Origin: an uncultured Actinomycetota bacterium
Lineage (GTDB): Bacteria > Actinomycetota > Actinomycetes > CAVWCF01
Assembly (NCBI GenBank): GCA_963697565.1
Contig: CAVOOM010000008.1
Span: 218,329-282,328, forward strand
Reading direction: 5' to 3'
Length of the DNA: 64,000 nt
A program made the translations under genes and the position numbers. Position 1 is the stretch's first letter; the number at the start of each line of letters is the position of its first letter. A model generated the notes under the pieces. That model did not search any database, was not told the DNA's origin, and was given only the letters and a program-made list of their open reading frames with translations. This document shows, piece by piece, positions 2,253-56,719 of this stretch.

Positions 2253-2284
2253 AGGCCGCGGCCCCCTTGGGGACCGCGGCCTTT
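2253..2284 (+). terminator. GC-rich hairpin (aggccgcggccccc ttgg ggaccgcggcct) with short T run; putative attenuator in whiB7 leader
   Basis: ~11-bp stem with 4-nt loop immediately downstream of the uORF stop, 48 nt upstream of the whiB7 start. Confidence 0.4.
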
Positions 2285-2331
2285 GCGCGTCCCGCCCGCC
2301 TTTCCCCACACCGCACCGGGAGGTGCCCGTC

Positions 2332-4145: not shown

Positions 4146-4300
4146 CGGCCTGCGCCTGGTGCGGCGCCGTGGCGCCGGAGCAGCCGCCGCTCACCTGGAC
4201 GTACTCGGTGGAGTCCGGCCGGGCGCTGTGGTACTGCGACCGGTGCGCCCGCGACCACCTGCGCGCCATCGAGGGGAAACTCGACTCGGAGTACTTCTGA
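4142..4300 (+). CDS. Small zinc-ribbon protein (52 aa; CAWCG...CDRC), not in the supplied ORF track
   Basis: GTG start overlapping the phosphodiesterase stop (GTGA), open to TGA at 4298-4300; two CxxC pairs; protein-like composition in a high-GC frame. Confidence 0.45.
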   Translation: MTACAWCGAVAPEQPPLTWTYSVESGRALWYCDRCARDHLRAIEGKLDSEYF

Positions 4301-4307
4301 CGGTCGG

Positions 4308-5621: not shown

Positions 5622-5652
5622 GGCCGGCTGGCCGATCGGGGCGGAGAAGGGG

Positions 5653-6744: not shown

Positions 6745-6803
6745 GCGGCCACGGTGCCCGCCCGCCCCTGTGGATCGCTGGCGCGATCCCCAGCCCGCAC
6801 CTG

Positions 6804-8153
6804 CTAGGAGGCCGCGCCGCACCAGCCCACGGCCAGCAGGGCGAGGGCCCGGGCGCAGCGCGCGACGTCGGCCAGGGCCACCGACTCGTCGGGCGCGTGG
6901 GCCTCGGCCGAGTCTCCCGGCCCGTACTGCACCGTCGGGATCCCGCCGATGCCCGTGAGCAGCCGCAGATCGGAGCCGTACGGCGCGCCCAGCGCCACCG
7001 GCGCCGCGCCGCCGGCGTCCTGGTGCGCCGACGCGAGCGCCGCGAGCAAGGGGTGCTGGGGATCCGTGCGGCCCGACGCGAACTGCCCGCCCCACCACTC
7101 GACCTCGACGGGATGGGCGGCCAGCCACGGGTCCCCCGCGCACGCCGCGGCGACAGCCGCCTCGAAGGCCGTCCGCGCCTCGTCCACGGGCTCGCCGAGC
7201 GCGACCCCGTACCGGCCCTCGGCGACCAGCAGGTCGGGCACGCTGCTGGCCCAATCGCCGGCCGACACGCGCCCGACCGACAGGGGGTAGGCCAGCGGCC
7301 AGCTGGCCAGCAGCGGGTCGACCGAGGCGTTGCGGCGCTCCTCCAGGGCGCGTAGGGCCGCCAGCACCGTCGGGAGGTGGTCGAGGACGCTCACCCCCTC
7401 CGTGCGGCGGGACGCATGCGTGCTGCTGCCCCGCAGGGTCAGCCGAAACGTGAGGGCGCCGGCGTTGGCCGCCACGAGGTCGAGCCCGGTGGGCTCGGGA
7501 ATCACGCAGCCGTCGGCCCGCCACCCGCGCCGCAGCACCCCGTACGTGCCGAGCCCGCCGTCCTCCTCGCCGACCACGGGCGCCAGCAGGATGTCTCCGG
7601 CCAACCGGGCCCCCGACCGGGCCGCCGCGGACACGGCGGCCACCGCGAGGCAGGCGGCGGCCAGGCCGCCCTTCATGTCGCAGGCCCCCCGGCCGACCAG
7701 CCGGCGCTCGTCGCCGGTCCCGCGGTACGTCGGCGTGAACGGCGGCGAGGTCCAGGCGCGGGGGTCACCGACGGGGACCACGTCGGTATGCGCGTTCAGG
7801 AGCAGGGAGCGCCCGCCGCCAGACCCCGGCAGCCGCGCGACCACGCCCCAGGCCTCGGTGCGGGCGACCTCGCTGCCGGGGAACCCGGGCTCGGCGGCGA
7901 GGCCCGCGAGGTCGAGCGGCCAGCGGTCCACCTCGAGGCCGAGGTCGTCGAGGCGCTCGGCGAGCACGTGCTGGATGTCGGATTCCGCCGGCGTCCCCCC
8001 GACGCTGGGGATCGCCACCAGCGAGGCGAGCAGGTCGTCCAGGCCGGGCAGCAGCCGCGCGAGGGCCGCCTCGACCGCGGCGCGGGGGTCGGTCACCCGG
8101 CGATCCTGCCGCACCGCGTGGGTCGGCGGGCCGGTTCGCGGGGACCCGGACAT
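6804..8153 (-). CDS. M20-family metallopeptidase (ArgE/DapE/succinyl-diaminopimelate desuccinylase-like)
   Basis: NAHTDVVP, GRGACDMKGG and EEDGG motifs; start uncertain (8168, 8153 or an internal GTG). Confidence 0.8.
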   Translation of the reverse strand: MSGSPRTGPPTHAVRQDRRVTDPRAAVEAALARLLPGLDDLLASLVAIPSVGGTPAESDIQHVLAERLDDLGLEVDRWPLDLAGLAAEPGFPGSEVARTEAWGVVARLPGSGGGRSLLLNAHTDVVPVGDPRAWTSPPFTPTYRGTGDERRLVGRGACDMKGGLAAACLAVAAVSAAARSGARLAGDILLAPVVGEEDGGLGTYGVLRRGWRADGCVIPEPTGLDLVAANAGALTFRLTLRGSSTHASRRTEGVSVLDHLPTVLAALRALEERRNASVDPLLASWPLAYPLSVGRVSAGDWASSVPDLLVAEGRYGVALGEPVDEARTAFEAAVAAACAGDPWLAAHPVEVEWWGGQFASGRTDPQHPLLAALASAHQDAGGAAPVALGAPYGSDLRLLTGIGGIPTVQYGPGDSAEAHAPDESVALADVARCARALALLAVGWCGAAS

Positions 8154-8223
8154 GGGTGAGGGCGGCACCCCTGATGGGGTGCCGCCCTCGTCGTCCCTGC
8201 GGGCCGAAACAGCCGGGGCTGGT

Positions 8224-8382
8224 TCAGGCCTTGCCGAGGATGCGGTTGACGGTGGTGCCGCAGACCGGGCAGGTGCCCTTGGCCATCCGGCGCCCAGAGT
8301 CGCTCACCTTGACCTCGCCGGTGAACTCCCGCTTCGCCTTGCACTTCACGCAGTACGCCTCGCCGGTGTAGCTCTCAGCCAT
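8224..8382 (-). CDS. Small zinc-ribbon protein (52 aa; CVKCK...CPVCG)
   Basis: GGGGAGG 6 nt upstream of ATG 8382; two CxxC pairs; the C-terminal part of an 89-aa track ORF whose N-terminus is junk. Confidence 0.5.
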   Translation of the reverse strand: MAESYTGEAYCVKCKAKREFTGEVKVSDSGRRMAKGTCPVCGTTVNRILGKA

Positions 8383-8686
8383 CGAGGGCCTCCCCTGTCG
8401 AACGGTCATCTGATGGTGCTGCCGCCGGAGGTGCTCTGGCTGCGGGGCGAACCATACGCGAGTCGCGGGCGCAATGGCGGGAGGTGGCCTCACTCACGCG
8501 GGTCGGGCCGTACGCGGGGCACGCCGGCCCGGGACGAGACGAGGCCCCCAGGGCGCACGCCCGGGTCGTCCGACTTCCCCTTTCGGACGACCCCGGCGAG
8601 TTCTCCCGGGGGCCTCGGTGCGGTCGTGAACCTAGGCGGGCACTCGGGGGGCGCGTCAAGCCAACCGGCCGAATCCGACGCCCAGC

Positions 8687-8826
8687 CTGTGGACAAGCCT
8701 GGGGACAGGCTGGGGACCGCGCCGGGGGAGCCTGTGGACCCGAGTCCCGATTCTGGGGATGCCGCTGTGGACAACTCGGTGCGTAACGCTCTGACCTGCG
8801 GCTTTGCTCTCCCAGGATGTGGACGA
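8687..8826. promoter_or_regulatory. Phased array of CTG(T/G)GGAC(A/C) repeats, including two perfect actinobacterial DnaA-box 9-mers (TGTGGACAA = reverse complement of TTGTCCACA)
   Basis: Copies begin at 8687, 8699, 8710, 8732, 8753 (partial), 8765 and 8817; spacings are multiples of ~11 bp; located in the 547-bp divergent intergenic region. Confidence 0.4.
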
Positions 8827-8929
8827 AAAATACTTCGCGGGGGTGAACGGCCGGCGGCCCGACGGTGACCGATTGATGCACCGGGCCGCGGCGCGGCCGG
8901 TTGTCGGGGCCCGGCGGTAGCGTCCGCGC

Positions 8930-9544
8930 ATGGCCAGCCCGATCCCCGACTCCGCCGAAGCGGGCGCCGCGCCCGAGGTCGAGGTGCGGCGCTCCGCGCG
9001 CCGCCGCAAGACCGTGTCGGCCTACCGCTCCGGCGACCGGGTGGTGGTGCTCATCCCGGCCCGGATGAGCCGGGCCGAGGAGGCCCACTGGGTCGAGACC
9101 ATGGTGGCGCGGCTCGCGGCCAAGGCCACCCGCACGGCCCCCAGCGACGCCCGGCTGCTGGCGCGGGCCCGGCTGCTGGCGCGCACCCACCTCGCCGTGG
9201 ACGGCCAGGTCGCGGAGCCGGCCTCGGTGCGGTGGGCGGCCAACCAGGCGCAGCGGTGGGGCTCGTGCACGCCCGCCGACCGCTCGATCCGGGTCTCCGC
9301 GCGCCTGCAGGCCATGCCGGACTACGTGCTCGACTACGTCCTCGTGCACGAGCTCGCGCACCTGCAGGAGGCCAATCACGGCCCCGCCTTCTGGGCCCTC
9401 GTGGCGCGCTTTCCCGGCACCGAGCGCGCCCGTGGCTTCCTCGACGGCTACGCGCTGGCCGAGGGCCGGCCATCGGCGGGGCCTGGTTCCTCCCCGGAGC
9501 CAGAGGCAGACGACCTCGACGACGGTGGGGACTGGCTGTTCTAG
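8930..9544 (+). CDS. YgjP/DUF45 (M48/WLM-like) metal-dependent hydrolase
   Basis: HELAHLQEANHGPAFWAL zinc-binding motif near the C-terminus; 204 aa. Confidence 0.75.
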   Translation: MASPIPDSAEAGAAPEVEVRRSARRRKTVSAYRSGDRVVVLIPARMSRAEEAHWVETMVARLAAKATRTAPSDARLLARARLLARTHLAVDGQVAEPASVRWAANQAQRWGSCTPADRSIRVSARLQAMPDYVLDYVLVHELAHLQEANHGPAFWALVARFPGTERARGFLDGYALAEGRPSAGPGSSPEPEADDLDDGGDWLF

Positions 9545-10119
9545 CCGACCTCCGCGCGCCGACGCAGCGCGGCGGACACCAGCCGCCGCACCGAGTCGTC
9601 GCTGTCCGCAGGCAGCGCGTCGGCGGGGTACCACGCCAAGGCGATCGACTCCTCGGACAACCGCTCGACGGCCCCGCTCGGAGCGATCGCCGCGTACTGC
9701 ACGTCGAGGTGGATGCGCTCGGGCTCGGCGGGCCCGGCGCAGCGCACCGGGTGGGCATCGAGGCGCACCGGCCCGCCCGCGAGAAGCACCAGGCCCTCGA
9801 CGCCGGACTCCTCCCGCGCCTCCCGCAGCGCGGCCCCCGACAGCGACCCGTCAGCGGCCTCCAGGTGGCCGCCCATCTGCAGCCAGCGCCCGACCTTGCG
9901 GTGCAGGCCGAGCAGCACCCGCTCGCCGTCGGACGACAGCACGAGCGCCGAGGCGGTCAGGTGCTCGGGCCGGCCGGAGCGGTCGACCGCGTCCGGTCGG
10001 GCGCGCAGCACCGCGCAGTAGCGCTCCCGCAGCACGCCCTGCGCCTCATCGGGCGCCGCCCAGGAGGAGAGGGCGGCGAGGGCGTCTTGATGGGCGGCCG
10101 TCGGCGGCGGGTCGATCAC
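9541..10119 (-). CDS. NUDIX hydrolase
   Basis: Nudix box GGHLEAADGSLSGAALREAREESGVEG; GTG start overlaps the stop of the upstream DUF2342 frame (GTGA); the track merges it into a 627-aa ORF. Confidence 0.75.
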   Translation of the reverse strand: MIDPPPTAAHQDALAALSSWAAPDEAQGVLRERYCAVLRARPDAVDRSGRPEHLTASALVLSSDGERVLLGLHRKVGRWLQMGGHLEAADGSLSGAALREAREESGVEGLVLLAGGPVRLDAHPVRCAGPAEPERIHLDVQYAAIAPSGAVERLSEESIALAWYPADALPADSDDSVRRLVSAALRRRAEVG

Positions 10120-11424
10120 AGATCGTCGAGGCCGGACAGGTCGTCTGGGATCTCGAGGCCGGCGACCTCGTCGTCCACCGAGGCCCGCCGCGCGACGTAC
10201 GCGGCCGGCTCGGCGAGGTCGGCGGGACCGGGCAGTCCCAACGGGTTCTCCCAGACCAGGTCGCGGCCGTCGGATCCCATGCGCGTCGGTGAGCTGCCGC
10301 CAGATGTCGGCGGCCTCGCGCATCCGGCGCGGCCTCAGCTGCAAGCCGACCAGCGCCGCGAACGCCGCCTCGGCGGGGCCGCCCGCCGCCCGTCGCCGGC
10401 GCGCGGTCTCGGCCAGCGCGACGGCGTGGGGGAGCGTCGGGGTGGCGGCGGCCTCGACCACGACATCGACCCAGCCCTCGACCAGCGCGAGCAGCGTCTC
10501 CAGCCGCTCGAGGGCCGCCGACTGCGCAGGGGTGTCGGCGGGCTCGAACAGCCCCGACTCCAGGGCTCCCTGGATCGAGGCGGGGTCGTTGGGGTCGATC
10601 GAGCCCATCCGCTCGCGCAGGGTGTCGGCGTCGAAGGTGATGCCGGCGGCGTAGGCACCTACGGCGTCGAGCAGCGCGCCGCGCAGCCAGGGCACATGCG
10701 CGAACAACCGCTGGTGGGCGCACTCGCGCAGGGCGAGGTGCAGGCGCACCTCGTCTTCGGGAATGCCCAGGCCCTCGGCGTACGAGCGGATGTTGACGGG
10801 GACGAGCACCGCCTTGCCCTCCGGGCCGAGGGGCAGGCCGATGTCGGTGGAGCCGACCACCTCGCCGGCCAGCTGGCCGAGCGCCTGCCCGGCCTGCGCG
10901 CCCACCATGGCGCCGCCGAGCTGCTGGAACATCCCGAGCATCGGGCCGGCCATGGCCTGCGCCTCGGCGGGGAGGGCGCTCGTCGAGGCCTCGGCCATCC
11001 GCGCGGCGAGCGGCTCGATCAGCCCCTTCCACACCGGCAGCGTGCCCTCCACCCACTCGGCTCGGCTCCAGGCGAGGGCCGCGGAGGTCCCCGCCGGGAG
11101 AGCGGTCACCGGGTCCAGCCAGACCTCCGCCAGTCGGACGGCCTCGTCGACCGCCTCGCGCTCGGTGCGCAGCACCGACGCGTCGCCCCGCGCGGCCACG
11201 GCCTGCCGTGCGGTGTCATGGGCCAGCTGCCAGTTGACCGGCCCCTCGCCGCCCGACTGCAGCATCCGGCCGACCTGCTCCAGCATCGCGCCCAGGTTGG
11301 CGGCATTGAGGTCGGCGGGTCCGAAGCCGAAGGCGGCGAACGGGTTGTCGCCGCCCGCTCCGCCGTCGCCGGGCTCGTCGGGGTCGTCGGAGGGCATTGC
11401 GAAGCCGAACGGCTGATCGCTCAC
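10116..11424 (-). pseudogene. DUF2342-family putative zinc-dependent hydrolase (Rv3195-like); apparent +1 frameshift near 10275
   Basis: N-terminal ~380 aa conserved in one frame; the C-terminal 55 aa (RDLVWENPLGLPG...EIPDDLSGLDDL*) continue in another frame ending at 10116; junction catGGGatcc; could be a sequencing error. Confidence 0.6.
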
Positions 11425-11541
11425 GTGGGGGCTCCTGGGGCCAAGATGGGCCCGTGCGCTTCACGGGCTTGTGCGACGGGGGGTACGCCCCCACCGTAAC
11501 GATGGCGCGCCCCTTGGCTGTTCCGCGAGCGGCCCGCAGCC

Positions 11542-12654
11542 ATGGCTGAGCCGGCCAAGCGCGTCCGCCGCGCGCCGAGGGGCGGCGACGGCCGCCCCGT
11601 GGTGGCCGTGGTCGGCGCCGCGAGCGGTCCGGGCGCGCTGCTTGCGCGCCGCCTCGCGGCTGGCCAGGACTACCGCTCCGTGGTCGCGATCGACGCCGTC
11701 CGGCCGAAGGGGGCGAAGGGGGCGCAGGATGAGGCCGACCGGCTGACCTGGCGGACGGCCCGGATCGACCACCCGGACGTCGTCCAGACACTCAGCGGGG
11801 TCGATGTGGTGGTGCACCTGCCCGGCTGGGCGCCGCCCTTCGCTCCCCACGTGGACGGCCGGTCCGCCGGGGCTGCCGCGCGGGCGGTGCTGACCGCGGC
11901 GGCCGCGCAGGGGGTGGGCCGGGCGGTGGTGGTGACGAGCGCGGTTGTCTTCGGCGCGCGGGCCGACAATCCCCTGCCGCTCGCAGACGACAGCCCGCTG
12001 CGGGCGACCCGCGAGGCCCCTGACGTCGCCGACCTGCTGGATGTCGAGGATGTGGCGGCGCAGGCCGCCATCACGCTCCCCGGGATGCGCGTGCATGTCC
12101 TGCGTCCGGCGCTGCTGGCGGGCCCGGGGCTCGACGACCCGCTGCTGCGCTACCTCGCCGCGCCGCGGCTGCTCGCCGTCCGCGACGGATGCACGGCCTG
12201 GCAGTGGTGCCACCTCGACGACCTGCTCTCCGCGGTCGAGCTCGCGGCCGCCGGCGGTCTGGACGCCCCTGCCGCGGCGGTCGCCTGCGACGGCTGGCTG
12301 GACCGCCCCGCGCTTGAGGCGGCGATCGGGCGGCGCTTCCTGGAGGTGCCCGCGGCAGCCGCCTTCGGCGCGGCCGAGCGGCTCGAGCGGCTCGGCCTGA
12401 CAGCGGCGCCGGCCAGCCAGCTGCAGTACGCGCTCTACCCCTGGGCGAGCGCGTGCGACCGACTGCGTGCCGAAGGCTGGCGGCCGGTGCACACCAACGC
12501 CGACGTCTTGGCCGAGGTGCTCGCCGCCCACCGCGCGGGCGGGCTCGACGGGCGCTCGGCCGCGCTCGGCGCGGCGGGGGCCGCCGGCGCCACGGCCGCC
12601 GTGCTCGGCGCCGCGGTCGCCGTTCGCCGCGCGCGCCGCCGCCGGCTGGGCTGA
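11542..12654 (+). CDS. NAD(P)-binding epimerase/dehydratase-like (Rossmann-fold) protein with Ala-rich hydrophobic C-terminus
   Basis: VVAVVGAASGPGALLARRL glycine-rich motif and VVVTSAVVFG; 370 aa. Confidence 0.6.
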   Translation: MAEPAKRVRRAPRGGDGRPVVAVVGAASGPGALLARRLAAGQDYRSVVAIDAVRPKGAKGAQDEADRLTWRTARIDHPDVVQTLSGVDVVVHLPGWAPPFAPHVDGRSAGAAARAVLTAAAAQGVGRAVVVTSAVVFGARADNPLPLADDSPLRATREAPDVADLLDVEDVAAQAAITLPGMRVHVLRPALLAGPGLDDPLLRYLAAPRLLAVRDGCTAWQWCHLDDLLSAVELAAAGGLDAPAAAVACDGWLDRPALEAAIGRRFLEVPAAAAFGAAERLERLGLTAAPASQLQYALYPWASACDRLRAEGWRPVHTNADVLAEVLAAHRAGGLDGRSAALGAAGAAGATAAVLGAAVAVRRARRRRLG

Positions 12655-12673
12655 CCGGCCTAGGCTGATCGCT

Positions 12674-12889
12674 GTGGACGCACTGGTCTGGCTGCTGATC
12701 CCGGTGGCGGCCTTTGTGCTCGCGCTGCTCTGGCTCAAGATCGCCCACCGCACGCGCCCGCCCGCGGGCACCGACGAGACTGTGGACGCGCACGACCGCT
12801 TCCGGCAGGCGATGGAGAGAGAGACCGGCATCGAGCCGTCGTCGCCCAGCGCCCCAGAAGACCCGGCCGACCCGGACCCGGAGCGCTGA
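12674..12889 (+). CDS. Putative small membrane protein (one TM helix, acidic C-terminus)
   Basis: GTG start; LVWLLIPVAAFVLALLWL hydrophobic helix; low confidence because the frame is otherwise junk upstream. Confidence 0.3.
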   Translation: MDALVWLLIPVAAFVLALLWLKIAHRTRPPAGTDETVDAHDRFRQAMERETGIEPSSPSAPEDPADPDPER

Positions 12890-12897
12890 GCACTCTC

Positions 12898-13953
12898 GTG
12901 TCGCGTCGGGTCGCGGTCCAGGTGACCGCTGGAATCGTGCTGGTGGCGCTGGTCGCTGTCGGAGCCTGGCTGCCGATGCCGTACGTGTCGCTGTCGCCGG
13001 GTCCGGTGTTCGACACCCTCGGTGAGCAGAACGGCGAGCCGCTCATCCTGATCGAGGGCACCACGACGTACCCCACGGACGGTCGGCTGGACCTCACGAC
13101 GGTGTCCGAGAGCGGTGGCCCGCGCAGCCGGCTGGGGCTGCTGGAGGCGGTCAAGGACTGGGTGGACCCCGACGCGGTGGTCGTGCCCGAGCGGACGCTG
13201 TACACGGGCCAGGAGACCGCCGAGGAGGTCGAGCAGCGCAACGCCGAGGACATGGAGCTGTCTCAGGAGAACGCCGTCACCGCCGCGATGAACCAGCTCG
13301 GGATCGCCACGACCACCGAGGTCGTGGTGCGCTCGATCGCGCAAGAGGCCCCGGCGCTCGGCAAGCTCCAGGCGGGCGACGTGATCCTCGCCGTAGATGG
13401 CACCCCGGTGACGTCCGCGGTGCAGTCCCGTGACCTGATCCGCGCGCGGGCCCCCGGGCAGGACGTCTCGATCAAGGTCCGGCGCGAGACCGCCGATGGC
13501 TCCGAAGAGCTTGACGAGGTCGTGACAACCGAGCCCTCGCCAGCCGATCCGGCCATCGCCTACATCGGGATCGTCCCGGGCGAGGTGCAGGTGCCGCCGT
13601 TCGAGGTGGCCCTCAGCCTGGACCGCGTCGGCGGCCCCAGCGCCGGGCTGATGTTCGCCCTGGGCATCGTGGACAAGCTCACCGCCGAGCAAGAGAACGG
13701 CGGCAAGCACGTCGCCGGCACGGGCACCATCGACGCCGACGGCACGGTCGGCCCGATCGGCGGCATCCAGCAGAAGCTGCGGGGAGCGCGGGACGCCGGC
13801 GCGACGGTGTTCCTGGTCCCCACGGAGAACTGCGAGGACGCCGCGGGGGCGGGCGTCGACGGACTGCGGCTTGTGCGTGTGACCACGCTGTCCGACGCGC
13901 TGACGGGGATGGCCGCAGTGGTCTCCGGCGGCGAGGCGCCCACCTGCGGCTGA
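12898..13953 (+). CDS. PDZ-domain / Lon-protease C-terminal-domain protein (Rv3194c-like)
   Basis: N-terminal TM helix, PDZ segment (GDVILAVDGTPV), and S16-like region with GPSAGLMFALGI. Confidence 0.8.
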   Translation: MSRRVAVQVTAGIVLVALVAVGAWLPMPYVSLSPGPVFDTLGEQNGEPLILIEGTTTYPTDGRLDLTTVSESGGPRSRLGLLEAVKDWVDPDAVVVPERTLYTGQETAEEVEQRNAEDMELSQENAVTAAMNQLGIATTTEVVVRSIAQEAPALGKLQAGDVILAVDGTPVTSAVQSRDLIRARAPGQDVSIKVRRETADGSEELDEVVTTEPSPADPAIAYIGIVPGEVQVPPFEVALSLDRVGGPSAGLMFALGIVDKLTAEQENGGKHVAGTGTIDADGTVGPIGGIQQKLRGARDAGATVFLVPTENCEDAAGAGVDGLRLVRVTTLSDALTGMAAVVSGGEAPTCG

Positions 13954-14006
13954 GCCGTGACCTCCCGGGTGCGGCGTTGAGCGGCGGTCCGGGTTAGGTT
14001 GAAGCG

Positions 14007-16936: not shown

Positions 16937-18620
16937 ATGGCTTTCTCGTTGGTGCCCGCGTCCCTGCGCGGCTACGACAAGACCTGGCTGGCCCGCGACG
17001 TCATCGCGGGGCTGACCCTGTCGGCGGTCGCGATCCCCGAGGTGATGGGCTACTCGTCCATCGCCCAGATGCCGATCGTCACGGGCCTGTACACCGTGAT
17101 CTTCCCGACCATGGTGTTCGCGCTGTTCTGCTCGTCGCGGCTGCTGGTCGTGGGGGCCGACTCGGCCACCGCCGCGGTGATGGCGGCGGGGTTGACCGGC
17201 CTGGGGGTCGCCGGGCTCACCCCGGAGTCGCCCGAGTGGGTCGCGTACGCGAGCCTGACCGCCCTGGTCACAGCGGCTCTGCTCGTGATCGCCCGGGTGC
17301 TCAAGCTGGGCTTCATCGGCGACTTCCTGAGCGCCTCGGTGCTGATCGGCTTCCTCACCGGCGTGGGCGTACAGGTGCTCACCGGGCAGCTGCCCGAGAT
17401 GCTGGGCATCCCCAAGGGCAAGGGCAACTGGCTGCAGCAGCAGTGGGAGCTGCTCACCTCGCTGAGCAGCATCCAGTGGGCGACGTTCGGCTTCTCCGTC
17501 GCGACCCTGGTGATCATCGTCGGCTTGAAGAAGCTCGCCCCCGTGGTGCCCGGCGCCCTGGTCGCGGTGGCCCTGCTCACCGGCGCTGTCCGCCGTGCTC
17601 GACTCGTCCGCCAGCGGCGTGGCCGTGGTGGGCTCGGTGCCGAAGGGCTTCCCGCCGATCGGCCTGCCGCAGGGCATCGAGTGGTCCGACGCGGTCACGG
17701 TGATCCCCATCGCCGTCGGGTGCCTGGTGCTGATCCTCGCCCAGAGCGCGGCGACCTCGCGATCCTTCGCCATGAAGACGGGCAGCCGCGTCGACGTGAA
17801 CAAGGACATCGTCGGCCTGGGCGGCGCCAACCTGGCGGCCGGCCTGTCCGGCACGTTCGTGGTCAACGGCAGCCCCACCAAGACGAAGATCCTGTACGAC
17901 CTGAAGGGCCGCACCCAGGTGGCCAACCTGACCATGGCCGGCGTCGTCCTCATCTTCACCGTCTTCGCGACCGGCCTGCTCGCCACCATGCCGAAGGCCG
18001 TGCTGGCCTCGATCGTCTTCCTGATCGGCGTCGGCCTGGTCGACCTCGTGGGCATGAAGTACCTCATGCGGCACAGCCGCGTGGAGTTCCTGGTCGCGCT
18101 CGCGACCGCCGTCACCGTCTGCGTGGTCGGGGTCACCCAGGGCATCGTGCTGGCGATCGTGCTGTCGCTTCTCGACCTGATCCGCCGCCAGTACAAGCCG
18201 GCCGACTACGTCTTGACGCAGGACGGCGACGGCGAGCCCGCCTACCAGCGGGCGACCCCCGGGGCGCAGAGCCTGCCGGGGCTGGTGGTGTACCGCTTCG
18301 ACGCCGAGCTCTTCTACGCCAACGCCAACCGGTTCGTGGACGACGTGGAGGCGGTGATCCTCGCCGCCCCCGATCCGGTCCGATGGCTGGCCATCGACTG
18401 CGCGTCCATGGCCGACATCGACTACTCCGCGAGCATGTCGCTGCGGGGGCTGATCGACTTCGCCCACGCACGCAACGTGGAGGTGCATCTGGTGCGCCCG
18501 GACACCCGCTTCACGGACAGCCTCAAGGCCTTCGACCTCGTCGACGAGATCCGCGGCGACCGCGTGCACGCGACCCTGGAAGAGGTCTTCAACGCCTTCC
18601 GCGCTGCTCCCGCGACCTAA
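16937..18620 (+). pseudogene. SulP-family sulfate/anion permease with C-terminal STAS domain; apparent frameshift near 17585-17595
   Basis: N-terminal frame (16937) degenerates after ...ALLTGAV; the rest continues in the 17595 frame (LSAVLDSSASGVAVVGSVPKG ... STAS); could be a sequencing error. Confidence 0.7.
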
Positions 18621-25398: not shown

Positions 25399-26490
25399 AT
25401 GAGCGGACTGCTCCTGACCGGGTTCCCCGGCTTCCTGGGGTCGGCGCTGCTGCCGAAGATCCTGGCCCGACGCAAGGGCGCCCACGCGGTGTGCCTCGTT
25501 CAGGGGCACTGGGTGGAGCTCGCCGCCGAGCGCCTGGCCGACCTTGAGGTCGCCCACCCGCACATCGCGGGCCGGGTCTCGCTGGTCGAGGGCGACGTCA
25601 CGGTGCCCGGGCTCGGCATCGACTACGTCGACCGCGGCCGGATCGCCGACGTCACCGAAGTCTGGCACCTGGCGGCCGTTTACGACCTCGCGGTGCCCGA
25701 GAGCGTCGCCCGGCGCGTGAACGTCGAGGGCACTGGGCACGTCCTCGAGTTCTGCCTGGGCGCGCGGCGCTTCCACCGCCTGCAGTACGTCAGCACCTGC
25801 TACGTGAGCGGCGACCACCACGGCGAGTTCGGGGAGGACGACCTCGACCTCGGCCAGGAGTTCCTCAACCACTACGAGTCCACCAAGTTCGAGGCGGAGG
25901 TCCTCGTCCGCCGTGCGATGAAGGCCGGGCTGCCGGCCACGATCTACCGGCCCGGGATCGTCGTCGGTGACTCCCGCACCGGAGAGACGCAGAAGTACGA
26001 CGGCCCGTACATGTACGCCACCTACATGAGCCGGCTGCCCCGGGTGGCGCTCATCCCCGGCGTCGGAGACTTCGACGTGGTGCGGGCCGGGCTCGTGCCG
26101 CGCGACTACGTCCTCGACGCCATGGACGTGCTCTCGGTGATGGACAAGTCCGAGGGCCGCACCTACGCCCTGACCGACCCGAACCCGCCCACCACGGGCG
26201 AGGTCGTGCAGATCCTGGCCGACTACCTCCACCGCAAGCCCATCAGGGTTCCCCTGCCGCTCGGCCTGACCCGGGCGGTGGTGGCCCACGTGCCCGGGCT
26301 GGAGAAGGTGCTCGGCCTGCCGGCCGAGGCGCTGGACTACCTGGCGGCGCAGACCACGTACTCGACGACGAACGCCGTCGCCGACCTCGAGGGCACCGGG
26401 GTGGAGTGCCCGCCGTTCTCCGAGTACGCCGAGCGGCTGCTGGACTACATGGGCGCCCACCCCGAGCACGGCGCATCGGCCATGACATGA
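25399..26490 (+). CDS. Stand-alone thioester-reductase / fatty-acyl-CoA-reductase-like NAD(P)-binding protein (NAD_binding_4, 'male sterility' domain)
   Basis: LLTGFPGFLGSALL Rossmann motif, YVSTCYVSG and catalytic YxxxK region (YESTK); GAGGTAGGG SD before ATG 25399. Confidence 0.8.
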   Translation: MSGLLLTGFPGFLGSALLPKILARRKGAHAVCLVQGHWVELAAERLADLEVAHPHIAGRVSLVEGDVTVPGLGIDYVDRGRIADVTEVWHLAAVYDLAVPESVARRVNVEGTGHVLEFCLGARRFHRLQYVSTCYVSGDHHGEFGEDDLDLGQEFLNHYESTKFEAEVLVRRAMKAGLPATIYRPGIVVGDSRTGETQKYDGPYMYATYMSRLPRVALIPGVGDFDVVRAGLVPRDYVLDAMDVLSVMDKSEGRTYALTDPNPPTTGEVVQILADYLHRKPIRVPLPLGLTRAVVAHVPGLEKVLGLPAEALDYLAAQTTYSTTNAVADLEGTGVECPPFSEYAERLLDYMGAHPEHGASAMT

Positions 26491-26524
26491 CCGACGCGCA
26501 TCCCAGCGAGCGAAGGAGCCAAGG

Positions 26525-28591
26525 GTGGACCGCGACAAGCCCTGCGTGATCGTCAACGTGAGCCTGGCCGGCTCCGACCGCGACTACGACGTGAACGTGT
26601 CGTTCCTGGATCGCGACTTCCACCTGCGCAGGATCGGCACCAACGGCGACGTCAAGGCCGCCCAGGAGCTCGTCGCGAAGTGGGCCGACGAGGCCGACGC
26701 CATCGCGGTGACCGGGATCCGCGAGGCGCGGGCCATCGGGCTGTACGACGGCGACCTGGTGGCCGTGGAGAAGGTGAAGAAGGCCACCCGGATGATCCCG
26801 GTCACCGACGGCCAGGCCCTCGACGACGTGCTCCAGGAGTGGTCGGTCCGGCACGTGAACACCCTCATGCCGGGCTACTTCACGAACGCGCGCGTCGCCG
26901 TCCTGGGCGGCAGCAACCACAGCGGGACCATTCGCATCCTTCGCGAGTACACCGAGAACTTCGAGTTCGCCGACCTCGCGCTGCGGGTCGACCTGCCCAA
27001 GCGCGCGGCCTCGGTCCCGCTCGGCGGCATGCTGGCCGACGCGGTGATGTGGCCGGCGCGCCGGCTGCCGAAGTCCCTCACCTCCCGGGTCAAGGGCCCC
27101 GGGCGCGGCGTCAGCTCGGCGCTCACCCGCCGCGCGGTGGACGACTGCCACGTCATCGTCGCGACCTTCGAGGAGCTCGACGCCTTCGGCGTGGACGACC
27201 TGCGCGGCAAGACGGTGGTCTCCGCGGGCATCTCCGACGCGCGCCTGGCCGAGCTGGCGGCCAAGGACGTCGACATGGTGCTGGACTCCACGCCGCAGCC
27301 GTTCGACGTCACGGTCAACGCCGCCGTGCTCGAGGCCATGATGGTCGCGGCCTCGTCCAGCCCGCTCGGACGGCTCACCAACGACGACCTGCTCGACATG
27401 GTGGTCTCCGCCGGCCTGGAGCCCCGGCTGCTCTACCCGAACGGCTACCGCCGGCGGAGCCGGTTCGCCTTCGTCATCCACCCGTTGTCCCAGAGCTACC
27501 TCACCAAGGTGGAGCCGCTGCGATCCATCGAGAAGTACGCGCCGAGCCTTGTGATGGACGGCGTGGAGAAGGTCGTCGCCTACATGCCGCCGATGATGTA
27601 CAGCCGGGTCACCGGAATCCAGTCCACCACCGGTGACGAGGCCGAGGGCTGGCTCATCACGGTCGGGGGCACCCCCAAGGAGCTCATGGCGCACAGCCCG
27701 GAGTTCACGTACGACCGGCTGCTCGACGCCGCCGAGCAGGCCAAGCGGCTGGGAGCCCAGGTGATGGGCCTCGGCGCGTTCACGAAGGTCGTCGGCGACG
27801 CCGGCGTCACCGTGGCCAAGCGCGCCCCGCTGCCGATCACCACCGGCAACAGCTACAGCGCGTCGGGGGCCCTCTGGGCGGCGCACGAGGCGATGGACCG
27901 GCTGGGGCTGGCCGAGCGCGACGAGCACGGCCGCATCGCCGGCAAGGTGATGGTCGTCGGCGCCACGGGGGCGATCGGATCCGTGTGCGCCCGGCTGCTG
28001 GCGCTGGCCAGCGATGACCTGTACCTGATCTCGCCGGAGACCGCGAAGCTGCTCGCGCTGAAGGGCGAGTTGGAGAAGGAGACCCCGCGCGCGACCATCC
28101 ACATCGCCGCGACGCCCGGGGATTTCCTGCCGGAGATGGACATGATCGTCACCGCCACTTCGGGCGCGGGCAAGAAGGTGCTCGACATCATGGCCGTCAA
28201 GCCGGGGTGCGTGATCACCGATGTGGCCCGGCCGCTGGACCTGTCCGCCGAGGACGTGGCGAAGCGCCCCGACGTGTTGGTCATCGAGTCCGGCGAGATC
28301 GAGCTGCCGGGTGACGTCCACATGAAGAACATCGGGCTGCCCCCGGGGGTCGCCTACGCGTGCCTGGCCGAGACCGTCGTCCTGGCGCTGGAGGGCCGCT
28401 ACGAGACGTTCACCATCGGACGCAACATCGAGTGGGAGAAGGTCAAGGAGATCTACAAGCTGGGCCTCAAGCACGGCATGAAGCTGGCCGCCATCGCCGG
28501 CGTGAACGGCTTCTACACCGACGAGGACCTCGCCCGGATCCGCGAGCTGGCGCTGGCGCGGCGGGCGGAGGCGGCGGGCAAGGCCGGCTGA
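26525..28591 (+). CDS. Fusion protein: unrecognised ~330-aa N-terminal domain plus C-terminal acyl-ACP reductase (cyanobacterial AAR, aldehyde-forming) family domain
   Basis: C-terminal half aligns with AAR motifs (FAFVIHPLS, GLGAFTKVV, PITTGNSYSA, MVVGATGAIGSVCARLL, ETVVLALEGRYETFTIGRNIEWEKV); GAAGGAG SD before GTG 26525; intact 688-aa ORF. Confidence 0.75.
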   Translation: MDRDKPCVIVNVSLAGSDRDYDVNVSFLDRDFHLRRIGTNGDVKAAQELVAKWADEADAIAVTGIREARAIGLYDGDLVAVEKVKKATRMIPVTDGQALDDVLQEWSVRHVNTLMPGYFTNARVAVLGGSNHSGTIRILREYTENFEFADLALRVDLPKRAASVPLGGMLADAVMWPARRLPKSLTSRVKGPGRGVSSALTRRAVDDCHVIVATFEELDAFGVDDLRGKTVVSAGISDARLAELAAKDVDMVLDSTPQPFDVTVNAAVLEAMMVAASSSPLGRLTNDDLLDMVVSAGLEPRLLYPNGYRRRSRFAFVIHPLSQSYLTKVEPLRSIEKYAPSLVMDGVEKVVAYMPPMMYSRVTGIQSTTGDEAEGWLITVGGTPKELMAHSPEFTYDRLLDAAEQAKRLGAQVMGLGAFTKVVGDAGVTVAKRAPLPITTGNSYSASGALWAAHEAMDRLGLAERDEHGRIAGKVMVVGATGAIGSVCARLLALASDDLYLISPETAKLLALKGELEKETPRATIHIAATPGDFLPEMDMIVTATSGAGKKVLDIMAVKPGCVITDVARPLDLSAEDVAKRPDVLVIESGEIELPGDVHMKNIGLPPGVAYACLAETVVLALEGRYETFTIGRNIEWEKVKEIYKLGLKHGMKLAAIAGVNGFYTDEDLARIRELALARRAEAAGKAG

Positions 28592-28902: not shown

Positions 28903-29316
28903 TCACCACCATCCCGCCGACGCCGATCCCCCTCCCTCGAGGCCGATGCTGGGCAGCGCGACGCGCTCCAGCAGGAGTCGGGCCCCGGCGTCGTCGAGGT
29001 CGGGACGCGCCAGCCGGACGTCCTCGCCGACCGTCGGGGTGAGCATCGTTGGGTGCTGCGCCACCAGCCCGACCCTGCGCCGCAGCGCGTGGACGTCGTA
29101 CGAGGCGAGCGGCTGGCCGTCGACGCGGATGGTGCCGTCAGTCGGCTCTGGAAAGCGGTCGAGCATCCGCAGGAAGGTCGACTTGCCCGATCGGCTGGCG
29201 CCGAGGACGGCGGTGGTGCAGGCCCGGTGGATTTGATCGCTCACGCCATCGAGGATGCGATGGCCGTCCCGTTCCCGGACGAAGCCATCGAGGCCGAACG
29301 CCTCGGCCAGGGCCAT
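28903..29316 (-). pseudogene. ABC transporter ATP-binding protein, N-terminal fragment only (Walker A GASRSGKST, Q-loop); signature and Walker B regions missing
   Basis: 137-aa ORF ends just before where LSGGQ should be; the downstream overlapping ORF (start 28912) may be a decayed permease. Confidence 0.45.
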
Positions 29317-40750: not shown

Positions 40751-40894
40751 TCACGACTCCGTGAGCGTGTCCTCCATCAGGTCGATGAGGGCCCAGAAGC
40801 GCACCTCGTCATCAGGGGTCGGGGGGGTCCGTTCGCTGGTCGCCGGCCCGGTGTCCTCAGGCCGATCCAGGTGCTGGAGCGTCGAGGTGTTCAT
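40751..40894 (-). CDS. Possible small ORF (47 aa; MNTSTLQHLDRPEDTG...DDEVRFWALIDLMEDTLTES)
   Basis: ATG-initiated, protein-like composition, but no clear RBS; below the track length cut-off. Confidence 0.2.
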   Translation of the reverse strand: MNTSTLQHLDRPEDTGPATSERTPPTPDDEVRFWALIDLMEDTLTES

Positions 40895-40940
40895 GGGGCC
40901 ACGCTAGGCCCGATCGGTGGGCCCGGGCATGTGGCGAAAG

Positions 40941-42360
40941 TCACATCTCCAGTGAGATGAAGTCGACCTTGTCGCGGACCCCGCAGTCGGGGCAGCACCA
41001 GGTGTCCGGGATCTGCGACCAGGGCGTTCCGGGTGCGAAGCCCTCGCGCTCGTCGCCGACCGACTCGACGTAGACATAGCCGCAGCCGGGGCAGCGGCCC
41101 CCGCGGGCCGGCCCTTCGGGCACGGTGCCGACGGAGGCCGCGGGATGGGCCGATCGCCGGGCGCGGCGAACGGGCGGGGCCGGGTATCGGGCCAGCAGCC
41201 TCGCGCGCTTGCGAGGGGAGAGGTTCGCCCGCGAGACGTCCCCTTGGTAGTGGGCCAGGACGCGCGGATCCATGACCCTGCGCCACCACGCGGGCACCAG
41301 CGCGATCGAGGATCATCCCGGCGTAACCGGTCGGCAGCTGCGGGGCGTCCTCGTAGTCCCGCAGCGCCTGGTAGCGGCGCGTGGGGTTGGCGTGGTGGTC
41401 GCTGTGCCGCTGCAGGTGGTAGAGCAGCACATTGGTGGCGATGTTGTTGGCGTTCCAGCTGTGGGTGGGCTCCACCCGCTCGTACCGCTCCTTGCCGGGA
41501 GCCCCGACCCGCTGGCGGAGCATGCCGTAGTGCTCGAGGTAGTTGACGAGCTCGAGCAGCGTGAAGCCCAGCACCGCCTGGAGCGCGAGGTACGGCAGGA
41601 TCCCGACGCCAAGCCAGGCGACCAGGGCGGCCCACAGCGCGGCGGAGAGCAGCCACGCGTTGAGCACGTCGTTGTCGAGGCGGAACGGCCCCTGCTGCCG
41701 GCGCGCGTAGCGGCGCTTCTCCAGGCGCCAGGCGCTGCGCAGCGAGCCGAAGACCGTGCGGGGCCAGAACGCGTAGAAGCTCTCGCCCATGCGGCTGCTC
41801 GCCGGGTCCTCCGGCGTGGCCACCCGCACGTGGTGGCCGCGGTTGTGCTCGATGTAGAAGTGGCCGTAGCAGCTCGGGGCCAGCGCGATCTTGGCCATCC
41901 AGCGCTCGACGGGCTCGCGCTTGTGCCCGAGCTCGTGCGCGGTGTTGATGCCGATGCCGGAGAGGAAGCCCATCGTCACCGCCAGGCCCACCTTGTCGGC
42001 GGTGGACAGGTCGCCGTTCGCGATCACCCAGAAGGCCGCGACCAGCCCGGCGTACTGCAGAGGCAGGAACAAGTAGGTGATCCAGCGGTAGTACCGGTCG
42101 GCCTCGAGCGCCGCGATCACCTCGTCGGGGGGGTTGGAGCGGTCGACTCCGACCAGCAGGTCCACCACCGGCACGATCCCCAGGACCACGAGCGGCCCGA
42201 TCCACAACCAGCCGCTCCAGCCGGTCCAGGCGTGGCCGCCGACCGCGACGAAGGCGAGCGCGGGCATCACGAGGCCGATCAGCCACAGGTAGCGCTTGCG
42301 GTCCCGCCACTCGGTGGTGGACGTCGGGGCAGGCCCGGTGCCGTCGGTCATGTTGGTCAT
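40941..42360 (-). pseudogene. alkB: Alkane 1-monooxygenase AlkB fused to a C-terminal rubredoxin domain (AlkW-type fusion); apparent frameshift near 41295
   Basis: His boxes HELGHK, EHNRGHH and LQRHSDHH; the conserved AlkB tail WRRVMDPRVLAHY continues without a stop into rubredoxin (CPGCGYVY...CPDCG); junction ctcGatcgcg; GGAGGG SD before ATG 42360. Confidence 0.75.
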
Positions 42361-42387
42361 CAGTCGCCCTCCGCCGCGCCCGCCCCG

Positions 42388-42450
42388 CCTGCTTGACAAA
42401 AGGTAGCGGCCTTGTCAAGCGGTTGACAACAACGCATCCGCTGTCAAGTG
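42388..42450. promoter_or_regulatory. Two tandem 7-N12-7 palindromic operators (TTGACAA-N12-TTGTCAA and TTGACAA-N12-TGTCAAG) in the 83-bp region upstream of alkB
   Basis: Half-sites at 42393, 42412, 42423 and 42442; probable regulator binding sites and promoter overlap. Confidence 0.45.
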
Positions 42451-45862: not shown

Positions 45863-45868
45863 ATCGCC

Positions 45869-47313
45869 ATGGACAGGCAGCCGCGGCTGGCGGCGTTCGA
45901 TGCGGTGATGTACGGCATCGAGGGCGATCCCGTTCTGCGCTCGGTGATCATCGCGCTGCTGGTTCTCGACCGCGAGCCCGACCGCGAGTTGGCGATCGAC
46001 CGGATCGAGCGGATGACCCTGGCTGTGCCGAAGTTCCGCCAGCGGGTCTCCGGCAGCTCGTGGTCGCCGACCCCGCCGCGATGGGAGACCGACCCCAACT
46101 TCGATCTGTCGTACCACCTGCGGTGGCACCGGGCGCCCGTCGAGGACGGCACCCTGCGGCCGGCGCTGACCACCGCCCGGCGGATGGCCGAGCAGGACTT
46201 CGACCGGGCGAGGCCGCTGTGGGAGCTGACGCTGGTCTCCGGGCTCCCCGAAGGCAAGGCCGCCGTGGTGCTGAAGATCCACCACGCGATCACCGACGGC
46301 ATGGGCGCCCTTCAGCTCGCGGCCGCGCTCTTCGATCTGGAACGCTCGCCAGACCCGGTGGCCACCGCCGAAACCGAAGGCGCCCAAGGCCGGGCAGCTC
46401 GACCCGCTCTCAAGGGTCTTCCAGGGCATCCAGTACGAGTCGAGCTCGCTGTTGCGGGGGGTGACGGCGGTGGCGACGGCGACGCCGGGCCTGGCGTACC
46501 GGGCGATCCGGCATCCCCAGGCGTCGGCCGGGGAGGCCCTGGGGTTCGCCGGCTCCACGACCCGGGTGCTCGCGCCGGCCTCCAAGCCGCTGAGCCCGAT
46601 CATGACCGGCCGCTCGCTCTCGTCCCACCTGGACTATGTCGAGGTCGCCGTTCGCGGACCTGCGGGCGGCTGCCAAGAGCAAGGGGCCACCGTCAACGAC
46701 GCCTACGTCACCATCGTCATGGGCGCCTTGGGCCGCTACCACGGCGAGCACGGGGTCGTCGTCGACAGCCTGCGGGTCAACATGCCCATCAACGTGCGCC
46801 CGGCCGGGGATGCGAGCGCCGGCGGCAACGCATGGGTGCCCGCGCGCTTCCCGGTGCCCGTCGGCGGGGCCGACCCGGCTGTCAGATGCGACGGTCGGGC
46901 CGCTCCTGCGCCAGGCCCGCGACGAGCCGGCCCTCGCCCTGAGCCAGCCCGTCTACCAGGTGCTCGCCCGGCTGCCCCGGCCGGTGGCGACGGCACTGGC
47001 CGGCGGGCTGATGAAGGGCACCGACTTCGCGGCCACCAACGTGCCCGGCCCGCCCATCCCGGTCTACTTCGCCGGCGCCCAGGTGGAGCGGCTCATGCCG
47101 TTCGCCCCGAAGGGCGGGGCGGCGGTCAACTTCGCGCTGTTCACCTACGACGGCATCGCCCAGATCGCAGTCAACCTGGACCTCGCCGCGATCCCGGACC
47201 CCGAGGTGTTCATGGGCTGCCTGCGCGCGGCGTGTGATGACGTACTGGCGCTGGGCCGTACCCCCGCCGCCCCGAAACGCAAGGCCAGGAGGGCCCCGGC
47301 CCGTCGCGACTAG
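45869..47313 (+). pseudogene. Wax ester synthase / diacylglycerol acyltransferase (WS/DGAT); at least 4 apparent frameshifts
   Basis: HHAITDG active-site motif; conserved segments alternate among frames 45869, 46452 and 46636 and back. Confidence 0.7.
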
Positions 47314-56718: not shown

Positions 56719-56719
56719 G

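Follow-up and report, generated by a model that had tools for sequence, protein, structure and literature searches.

A 64,000-nucleotide stretch of DNA from an uncultured Actinomycetota bacterium (contig CAVOOM010000008.1, positions 218,329 to 282,328; hereafter the window) carries on its forward strand a pair of adjacent genes that may well encode two reductases acting in series. Gene 1 (25399..26490, + strand, ATG start, 363 aa) encodes a stand-alone extended short-chain dehydrogenase/reductase (SDR) with an NAD_binding_4 domain of the thioester-reductase or fatty acyl reductase (FAR) type. Gene 2 (26525..28591, + strand, GTG start, 688 aa) appears to encode two tandem modules with the fold of acyl-ACP reductase (AAR), of which the first has lost its catalytic residues. 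We propose, with a probability of about one half, that the pair is a conserved operon of the Actinomycetes in which two acyl-thioester/aldehyde reductases work one after the other on fatty acyl substrates, and that the alcohol formed goes to wax-ester or neutral-lipid synthesis.

In the proposed reaction the C-terminal module of gene 2 would take an acyl group from acyl carrier protein (ACP) or coenzyme A (CoA) onto Cys613; the acyl-cysteine thioester would then be reduced with NAD(P)H and the aldehyde released, in a ping-pong sequence like that of AAR. Gene 1 would reduce the aldehyde to a primary alcohol, which WS/DGAT could use to make wax esters. The N-terminal module would serve as the obligate, non-catalytic half of a pseudo-dimer, and may bind an adenine nucleotide or provide a docking site for gene 1, ACP, substrate or product. 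Conversion of a thioester to an alcohol by two reductive steps is the logic of the alcohol-forming FARs.

The C-terminal module of gene 2 (aa 313–688; 27461..28591, + strand) is predicted to be an active thioester reductase of the AAR/PigE type. Residues 313–677 match the PigE model NF053554 with an E-value of 9e-54 and 183 bits over profile positions 1–358, the thioester-reductase part; the aminotransferase part of the profile is unmatched, and its whole-protein cutoff of 850 bits is not reached. The AAR model TIGR04058 matches residues 352–653 (E 6.2e-21, 75.1 bits), below its equivalog cutoff of 449.7. Sequence searches of the PDB with this module return PigE (4ppm, E 3.8e-30) and AAR (6jzq, E 2e-16). 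An AlphaFold2 model of full-length gene 2 has a mean pLDDT of 83 and a pTM of 0.83; its best Foldseek match is AAR, with an E-value of 8e-20, TM-scores of 0.72–0.75 normalised to AAR and 24–26% sequence identity, and the AAR-like TAD domain of carmabin synthetase ranks next after AAR. A hidden Markov model (HMM) search for rival dehydrogenase families found none that scores better on this half of the protein: the models for shikimate dehydrogenase and for SDRs score no more than 21 bits, compared with 183 for the PigE reductase domain and 75 for AAR. A preliminary description, made from the letters of the window and the translations of its open reading frames (ORFs), had likened the C-terminal half of gene 2 motif by motif to cyanobacterial AAR. 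The assignment to the AAR type stands, with family-model and PDB matches and aligned catalytic motifs. Equivalence with the cyanobacterial enzyme does not, for 75 bits fall far short of the cutoff of 450 and the PigE-type reductase domain is closer.

The motifs quoted in that description are all present in gene 2: FAFVIHPLS at aa 314–322, TTGNSYSA at 439–446, VVGATGAIG at about 479–485, and EGRYETFTIGRN at 623–634. TTGNSYSA (27839..27862, + strand), located by alignment and by its conservation, is the Thr-Thr-Gly junction motif of the AAR/TAD fold. The dinucleotide-binding loop GATGAIG (aa 479–485; 27959..27979, + strand) aligns with residues 162–168 of AAR, GATGDIG. Cys613, in the sequence YACLAE (28361..28363, + strand), aligns with the AAR nucleophile Cys294 in FACFAE. 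In AAR, the GATGDIG loop and Cys294 serve a ping-pong mechanism that proceeds through an acyl-cysteine (PMC7089970). Cys613 is kept in every one of the 188 proteins checked, which comprise 120 close homologues, 37 distant homologues with fused modules and 31 C proteins from lineages in which the two modules are separate genes, and the GATGAIG loop is likewise invariant in these three groups. Roughly half of the full-length relatives that diverge most have G, T, E, S or A in place of the cysteine in the C-terminal module but retain the two-module architecture (P0137, P0145, P0150, P0171, P0191 and P0238), so that neither module would possess a nucleophile there. The contigs of three distant homologues, P0171, P0137 and P0210, are too short to give a neighbourhood context.

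The N-terminal module (aa 1–312; 26525..27460, + strand) is, with moderate confidence, a diverged and catalytically dead tandem duplicate of the AAR fold that lacks both the nucleophile and the GxGxxG loop. The preliminary description had seen in these approximately 330 residues a novel domain that matched nothing recognisable. No curated Pfam or NCBIfam model indeed covers aa 1–312, and a PDB sequence search found no match, weak hits to a T7 tail fibre and to alanine racemase (E ~0.1) being taken as noise; the claim of novelty gives way to a degenerate AAR-fold duplicate as the most likely identity, on the strength of Foldseek, hhalign and shuffled controls. A model of aa 1–310 (pLDDT 82) was searched against the PDB by Foldseek. 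The highest TM-scores are to carmabin TAD (TMq 0.51) and AAR (TMq 0.45–0.48), a weak likeness of fold; the lowest E-values (1e-6) are to type-I periplasmic sugar-binding proteins, at a TM-score of ~0.36.

When the two halves of gene 2 are compared with each other by hhalign, on the basis of 23 aligned family sequences, a single colinear match of 219 columns results (P 6.5e-4, probability 27%), which spans residues 43–300 of the N-terminal half and 89–344 of the C-terminal half. Its score of 35.2 was not reached in any of 60 control comparisons with the C-terminal half shuffled in blocks of 12 columns (mean 19.0, standard deviation 3.3, maximum 29.5; z ~4.9). The alignment runs motif to motif, pairing N-terminal PVTDG with C-terminal PITTGNS, VAVLGGSNH with VVGATGAIG, FEFAD with LYLISP, HVIVAT with DMIVTATS, and AAVLEA with YACLAE. 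At the position of the glycine loop the N-terminal module has LGGSNHS, of which only G129 is conserved. Where the active module has its catalytic Cys-Leu-Ala, the N-terminal module has V268-L-E270 (27326..27334, + strand), and the first position varies among V, T, I and A across the family, so that the nucleophile is missing.

Other residues of the dead module are strictly maintained. G96, D150, K229, P257 and E270 are invariant, and are retained even where the module is a separate protein. G96 lies in PVTDG (aa 92–96; 26798..26812, + strand), the counterpart of the Thr-Thr-Gly junction; K229 (27209..27211, + strand) belongs to a GKT sequence. D150, the last residue of FEFAD (aa 146–150; 26960..26974, + strand), is found in all 120 close homologues, all 37 distant fused ones and all 30 split N proteins, and terminates the strand aligned with Rossmann strand β2. 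In NAD-dependent enzymes the end of this strand binds the adenosine ribose, and from the position of D150 it is possible that the N-terminal module has kept a residual capacity to bind a nucleotide. Immediately after D150 comes an insertion (aa 151–195; 26975..27109, + strand) that contains the invariant P182, has a pLDDT below 50, and falls in a gap of the hhalign alignment, with no counterpart in the C-terminal module.

The assignment of gene 1 as a thioester reductase of the NAD_binding_4 type, proposed in the preliminary description, is secure. The protein matches PF07993 over its full length (E 2e-46, 158.7 bits; cutoff 20.1), and both the TGxxGxxG and YxxxK motifs are intact. It also matches the two-domain SDR model of PRK07201, NF005539, with 250.5 bits, below the cutoff of 549; the match covers positions 4–353 of 657 and thus the N-terminal half of the model. 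The thioester-reductase domain model TIGR01746 scores 125.5 bits against a cutoff of 213. The nearest solved structure by sequence is the reductase domain of MxaA (4u7w, E 3e-25). Its nucleotide-binding motif TGATGFLG aligns with TGFPGFLG of gene 1 (aa 7–14; 25417..25440, + strand), and its YAQSK with the catalytic Y159-E-S-T-K163 (25873..25887, + strand); upstream of the latter, the sequence reads STC at aa 132–134 (25792–25800, + strand). Judged by sequence statistics, the matches of gene 1 and of the C-terminal half of gene 2 are well beyond chance. The homologues of gene 1 are all stand-alone proteins of ~363 aa that bear only the names "SDR family oxidoreductase" or "thioester reductase-like protein".

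Gene 1 thus shares its NAD_binding_4 domain and the TGxxGxxG and YxxxK motifs with MxaA (4U7W), with the PRK07201-type FARs and with Marinobacter FarA. Unlike the PRK07201-type FARs, a group in which we would presumably include Rhodococcus FcrA and Mycobacterium tuberculosis FCR1 and FCR2 (Rv3391 and Rv1543), it lacks a C-terminal classical SDR half and is complete at 363 aa. It differs from terminal reductases and other FAR-type SDRs in having no carrier-protein or adenylation partner.

Both genes are intact ORFs at the coordinates and with the strong Shine-Dalgarno sequence of gene 2 that had been reported for them. The G+C content at third codon positions is 0.96 in gene 1 and 0.98 in gene 2, in DNA of ~70% GC, which marks both as genuine coding regions. 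The intergenic gap is 34 nt and contains the Shine-Dalgarno sequence GAAGGAG (26512..26518, + strand) 6 nt before the GTG of gene 2. Because the gene on the 5' side of gene 1 is a divergent MsrA gene and that on the 3' side of gene 2 a convergent ABC-ATPase fragment, the pair constitutes a self-contained bicistron. The MsrA gene was considered as a member of the unit and rejected, being missing from 80 of 80 related loci. A scan of 24.9–29.1 kb detected no σ70-like promoters or intrinsic terminators, but such a scan is uninformative for a high-GC actinobacterium.

Conservation of the pair was examined in a close set of 80 Actinomycetes genome loci in which gene 2 is 62–90% identical to that of the window, from Nocardioides, Marmoricola, Dermatophilaceae, Phycicoccus, Nanopelagicales, Jiangellales and Mycobacterium metagenome-assembled genomes. 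A gene 1 homologue lies 30–70 bp upstream of gene 2 in 61 of the 80 loci by tblastn, and in 57 of 77 by ORF clustering, in which gene 1 is the sole neighbour conserved across the set. The unit is therefore kept in about 75% of the actinobacterial loci, an answer to the question of pair conservation raised by the preliminary description.

A second, less regular neighbour points toward lipid synthesis. Among the 80 actinobacterial loci, 12 have a WS/DGAT gene, confirmed by both of its Pfam domains, beside the pair; among 80 distant loci, a set of metagenome contigs of 32–72% GC that carry distant family members, 5 have one beside the gene 2 homologue. If the chance background is ~3% within 6 kb, a value that we assumed from the typical actinobacterial copy number and did not measure, the binomial probability of 12 in 80 is ~5e-6. 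The genes often abut on the same strand, in the order WS/DGAT, gene 1, gene 2 (L035, L036, L038 and L041) or gene 2, WS/DGAT (L029, L049, L065 and L072), and in two distant loci (L111 and L118) the gene 2 homologue and WS/DGAT overlap by 4 bp. In L113 a gene for an SCP2 lipid carrier lies between the two, and in L084 the order is gene 2 homologue, saccharopine-dehydrogenase-like gene, epimerase-type SDR, PlsC-type acyltransferase, WS/DGAT. Patatin-like lipase genes lie downstream of gene 2 in 9 loci, most of which belong to the clade nearest the window, and aldehyde dehydrogenase genes are nearby in 8, mostly on the opposite strand and not contiguous with the pair. These recurrent neighbours make fatty acyl chains the most likely substrates and wax esters the most likely destination of the alcohol. 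The fatty aldehyde- or fatty alcohol-forming module that had been suggested from the window is thus favoured by comparative context (WS/DGAT in 17 of 160 loci, patatin in 9, aldehyde dehydrogenase in 8), from which we infer its activity.

The single-module AAR of Synechococcus elongatus (orf1594; 6JZQ, 6JZU and 6JZY; TIGR04058) shares with the C-terminal module its fold, the GATGxIG and TTGN motifs, the xACxAE sequence at the start of the cysteine helix, and GRN, and the chemistry expected of the two is the same, an acyl-cysteine intermediate followed by NAD(P)H reduction to an aldehyde. The differences lie in architecture and context. AAR has 341 aa, compared with the 688 of gene 2, in which a dead copy of the fold stands in front. 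In cyanobacteria the partner of AAR is the ferritin-like aldehyde-deformylating oxygenase, which is absent from the Pfam-scanned ORFs of the window and from the conserved neighbours; gene 2 is instead partnered by an SDR reductase and associated with WS/DGAT. AAR is cyanobacterial, whereas the gene 2 family occurs in heterotrophic Actinomycetes and in many other phyla.

PigE and TamH, of prodigiosin and tambjamine biosynthesis (NF053554; 4PPM), provide the best sequence match to the C-terminal module and have its DVARP, LAET and GR motifs in common. In these proteins the reductase is fused to a pyridoxal phosphate-dependent (class III) aminotransferase and is encoded in a biosynthetic cluster, whereas that of gene 2 is fused to a degenerate paralogue and has no aminotransferase domain. 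The PigE reductase domain is reported to turn a thioester into an aldehyde, and glutamyl-tRNA reductase (GluTR) was the second-best template for PigE (PMC8341465). GluTR (HemA) is a distant relative of the same superfamily of cysteine-dependent reductases and also forms an acyl-cysteine intermediate; it differs in its tRNA ester substrate, its domain layout and its mode of dimerisation, and the match is limited to the NAD-binding region. The TAD of carmabin synthetase CarI (9E4S and 9E4U) has the AAR fold, gives the highest TM-score with the N-terminal module (TMq 0.51), and matches the C-terminal module strongly. TADs possess an invariant Thr-Thr-Gly junction and an invariant catalytic cysteine, and acidic residues at the adenosine ribose exclude NADP and CoA (bioRxiv 10.1101/2024.10.28.620694). 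These acidic residues are reminiscent of D150 in the N-terminal module. The TAD, however, is the terminal part of a nonribosomal peptide synthetase (NRPS), keeps its cysteine and dimerises through an N-terminal domain of its own, whereas the N-terminal module lacks the cysteine and belongs to no NRPS.

The two-module arrangement extends far beyond the Actinomycetes. An exhaustive HMMER search of the N-terminal half against 1.84 billion representative sequences returned only 435 clusters, nearly all of them fragments or full-length proteins of ~680–740 aa with the same two-part architecture at 25–57% identity. Among 8000 candidates scored, gene 2 has 4550 matches at E ≤ 1e-5, and a stand-alone N protein has nearly 8000 database matches. 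The AAR-type domain had been thought remarkable in a high-GC actinobacterium; with thousands of database members across phyla, it is not rare. Wherever a distant locus carries the whole gene on its contig, both halves are matched. In about 30 of the 80 distant loci, several of them from the human gut, the modules are two adjacent genes encoding ~308 and ~361 aa, with N directly 5' of C. Fusion in some lineages and adjacency in others is a classic signature of obligate partners. The N-terminal region is not a separate ORF in the window, where gene 2 is a single intact frame, but the halves are indeed separate adjacent genes elsewhere.

The family carries only generic or wrong names, and its N-terminal module has no curated model. 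NCBI entries for Phascolarctobacterium give the stand-alone N protein the label "quinate 5-dehydrogenase"; no quinate or shikimate dehydrogenase match to such a protein was found in Pfam or NCBIfam, and the label appears, by the family models, to be a misnomer. The split C protein is matched by hemA (GluTR) models at E 3e-15. A search of the literature for COG5322, for "quinate 5-dehydrogenase" and for AAR homologues in actinobacteria or wax-ester synthesis found no experimental or bioinformatic characterisation of the family. TabE of Streptomyces, named an "acyl-ACP reductase", was set aside as an unrelated enzyme of the aldehyde dehydrogenase family. A 1095-aa protein (P0151) that might have been a natural fusion of gene 1 and gene 2 was not counted; much of its sequence reads as though high-GC DNA had been translated in the wrong frame. 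Some family members have additional features, a C-terminal hydrophobic helix in P0257 and P0267 and a Lys/Ala/Pro-rich tail of ~150 aa in P0181, and downstream of P0210 (L083, region 2547–3735) come two genes with phasin domains, to which the second adds a PHB_acc_N domain. The helix, the tail and the phasin neighbours are hints of an association with membranes or lipid granules.

We offer, more tentatively than the operon itself, the proposal that a dead AAR-fold paralogue joined to a live AAR-type reductase, by fusion or by gene adjacency, defines an unrecognised broad class of obligate pseudo-heterodimeric acyl-thioester reductases, found in Actinomycetota, in Negativicutes-like gut bacteria and in many Gram-negative lineages. 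Such enzymes could be the so far missing source of the fatty aldehydes and alcohols that enter wax esters, and perhaps also other lipids, and the dead module could confer nucleotide- or partner-dependent control, or hand over the product to the SDR and WS/DGAT.

The main rival reverses the direction of the pathway. Gene 1 would oxidise an alcohol to an aldehyde, and gene 2 would convert the aldehyde, through a thiohemiacetal on Cys613 and an acyl-enzyme, to acyl-CoA or acyl-ACP in the degradation of wax esters, alkanes or lipids. The cysteine-thioester chemistry is reversible in principle, and gene 2 has a weak Pfam match to Semialdhyde_dh, a family that runs both ways; the patatin genes directly downstream in 9 loci, the aldehyde dehydrogenase genes near 8 and the AlkB-type hydroxylase of the window would also suit a catabolic role. 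Against this, the characterised relatives AAR, the PigE reductase domain and GluTR are all reductive, the aldehyde dehydrogenase genes are mostly on the opposite strand and apart from the pair, and the commonest lipid neighbour is the anabolic WS/DGAT, joined in L084 by a PlsC-type acyltransferase. We judge the oxidative direction to be unlikely. It is also conceivable that gene 2 reduces a specialised, non-fatty thioester, as PigE and TamH do, or an aminoacyl ester as in GluTR, and belongs to specialised or cofactor metabolism. The preference of the HMM search for PigE over AAR (183 versus 75 bits), the hemA matches of the split C protein, and heme genes (hemE, protoporphyrinogen-oxidase-like and chlorite-dismutase-like) that flank the pair in one actinobacterial clade lend this some force. 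Those heme genes, however, are limited to that clade of ~10–12 loci; the conserved neighbour is gene 1 and not an aminotransferase, polyketide synthase, NRPS or carrier-protein gene; the recurrent neighbours are WS/DGAT, acyltransferase, SCP2 and patatin; and 62–95% identity across several actinobacterial orders is unlike an enzyme of a biosynthetic cluster. A specialised substrate seems quite improbable on this evidence.

Two further alternatives concern the parts of the unit. The 312 N-terminal residues might be an independent ligand-binding or catalytic domain, either a two-lobed sensor of the periplasmic-binding-protein type or a genuine quinate 5-dehydrogenase, with only a generic Rossmann-like resemblance to AAR. 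The sugar-binding proteins do provide its lowest Foldseek E-values, its own set of invariant residues, kept even in split proteins, argues for a binding site, and neither the lack of an AAR match for its profile HMM in the PDB nor the hhalign probability of 27% speaks for kinship with AAR. Yet the TM-score to the binding proteins is ~0.36, compared with 0.45–0.51 for TAD and AAR; the colinear alignment with the C-terminal module surpasses 60 of 60 shuffled controls; no quinate or shikimate dehydrogenase model matches; and the domain is always fused to, or directly 5' of, an AAR-type module, as would be expected of a paralogous partner. The low TM-score and this constant tie led us to reject the periplasmic-binding-protein fold, and an independent domain of any kind is improbable. 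Finally, the adjacency of genes 1 and 2 might be conserved order without functional coupling, with each reductase in a pathway of its own; gene 1 is, after all, missing beside gene 2 in 19 of 80 actinobacterial and 80 of 80 distant loci. But a 34-nt gap with a Shine-Dalgarno sequence is typical of co-translation, the pairing persists as gene 2 identity drops from 90% to 62% and all other neighbours change, WS/DGAT lies directly upstream of gene 1 in the arrays described above, and a different extended SDR occupies the equivalent place in another lineage. In that lineage (L084, L085, L099, L122 and L157) an epimerase-type extended SDR that is not orthologous to gene 1 lies directly downstream of the gene 2 homologue. 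Mere conservation of order is thus the least probable of the alternatives, and very unlikely.

The proposal of a reductive, lipid-directed operon must itself be weighed against several observations. Its chemistry does not transfer in detail from AAR. In the alignment, R314 of the basic pocket of AAR corresponds to the conserved R633 and R193 to a lysine, but R189 is replaced by proline and Y247 by the alanine of DVARP; cofactor and carrier preference and the shape of the substrate tunnel are therefore not transferable to gene 2. Likewise, the C-terminal module is nearer to PigE, whose substrate is a medium-chain β-substituted thioester, than to AAR (75 versus 450 bits), so that neither chain length nor carrier (ACP or CoA) can be deduced. 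The literature contains no enzymology that we could find for any family member. The signals behind the duplication are weak (hhalign probability 27%, TM-scores of ~0.45–0.5), and the N-terminal profile HMM retrieves nothing relevant, AAR included, from the sequences of the PDB. As to context, no gene 1 homologue was found in the flanks of any of the 80 distant loci, and WS/DGAT, a multi-copy gene in actinobacteria, is adjacent only in a minority of loci. In the Negativicutes-like gut-type loci L124–L143 (42–49% GC), the split N and C genes sit in a housekeeping array with no lipid context, read by eye as birA, coaX (type III pantothenate kinase), dusB, N, C, greA and lysS (for example, L130, 4923–12562). 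The last of these points comes from the window itself, in which the nearest WS/DGAT gene is 17 kb away, and in which the WS/DGAT and AlkB-rubredoxin genes, 12–18 kb from the pair, are broken in frame and not syntenic in relatives.

Those two genes had been cited in the preliminary description as support for a lipid or hydrocarbon context. They are present, but distance, broken frames and lack of synteny deprive them of weight; we rejected them as evidence, and the comparative loci carry the argument. The WS/DGAT gene (~45863–47313, + strand) is split over three reading frames, which implies two frameshifts: one frame holds the N-terminal part, which includes the active-site motif HHAITDG, a second the middle part and a third the C-terminal part (PF06974 match at 46636–47313). 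It is either a pseudogene or the victim of indel errors in the assembly. The AlkB-type hydroxylase (40891–42399, − strand; PF00487) has the motifs HELGH, HNRGH and HLQRH and loses its frame near 41300, after GYAGMIL. Its expected continuation and the rubredoxin domain (~40955–41110; CPGC...CPDC, ending ISLEM and a stop) lie in another frame, and a fusion of the two requires one frameshift.

Other features of the window are recorded as side observations. The GC content steps from 75–79% in the flanks (1–14000 and 54000–64000) to 68–73% in the central 14000–54000. Besides the WS/DGAT and AlkB genes, the central block contains a truncated sulfate permease (17595–18620, matching profile positions 214–380 only) and the ABC ATPase fragment that follows gene 2 (28903–29316). 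The central 40 kb may represent an island, a region in decay or an artefact of the assembly. Between 32646 and 40707 on the + strand lie pieces of a 2-oxoacid:ferredoxin oxidoreductase (POR_N, POR, 4Fe-4S and TPP_enzyme_C), seemingly unrelated to the pair, after which come a protein with Fer4_20 and pyridine nucleotide-disulphide oxidoreductase domains and a small DHODB-type Fe-S protein. A/V-type ATPase genes (59282–63626, + strand), comprising a V_ATPase_I-like gene (59282–60679) and the catalytic A subunit (61848–63626), are uncommon for an actinobacterial contig.

What is new in gene 2 is that a thioester reductase of the AAR/PigE type is combined with a dead paralogue in tandem, with an SDR partner and with an association with WS/DGAT; the fold and the class of chemistry are known. 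The bacterial sources of fatty alcohol for wax esters described so far are Acr1, FarA/AcrB, the PRK07201-type FcrA and a recently described HMGR-like FcrA (PMC11948995). No enzyme of the gene 2 type is listed in recent surveys of the enzymes that provide wax-ester precursors. Recognition of the family would correct two names that have been propagated in annotations, "predicted amino acid dehydrogenase" and "quinate 5-dehydrogenase". The cyanobacterial AAR is prone to aggregation, and for oleochemical engineering a natural, stabilised two-module form could behave better. For the evolution of enzymes, the family offers an instance of a catalytically dead duplicate that has long been retained, whether fused to its active partner or as a separate gene. 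If the proposed function is correct, an AAR-type enzyme outside the cyanobacteria would constitute a further route to the alcohols of wax esters, and would explain the supply of alcohol in many soil and freshwater Actinomycetes.

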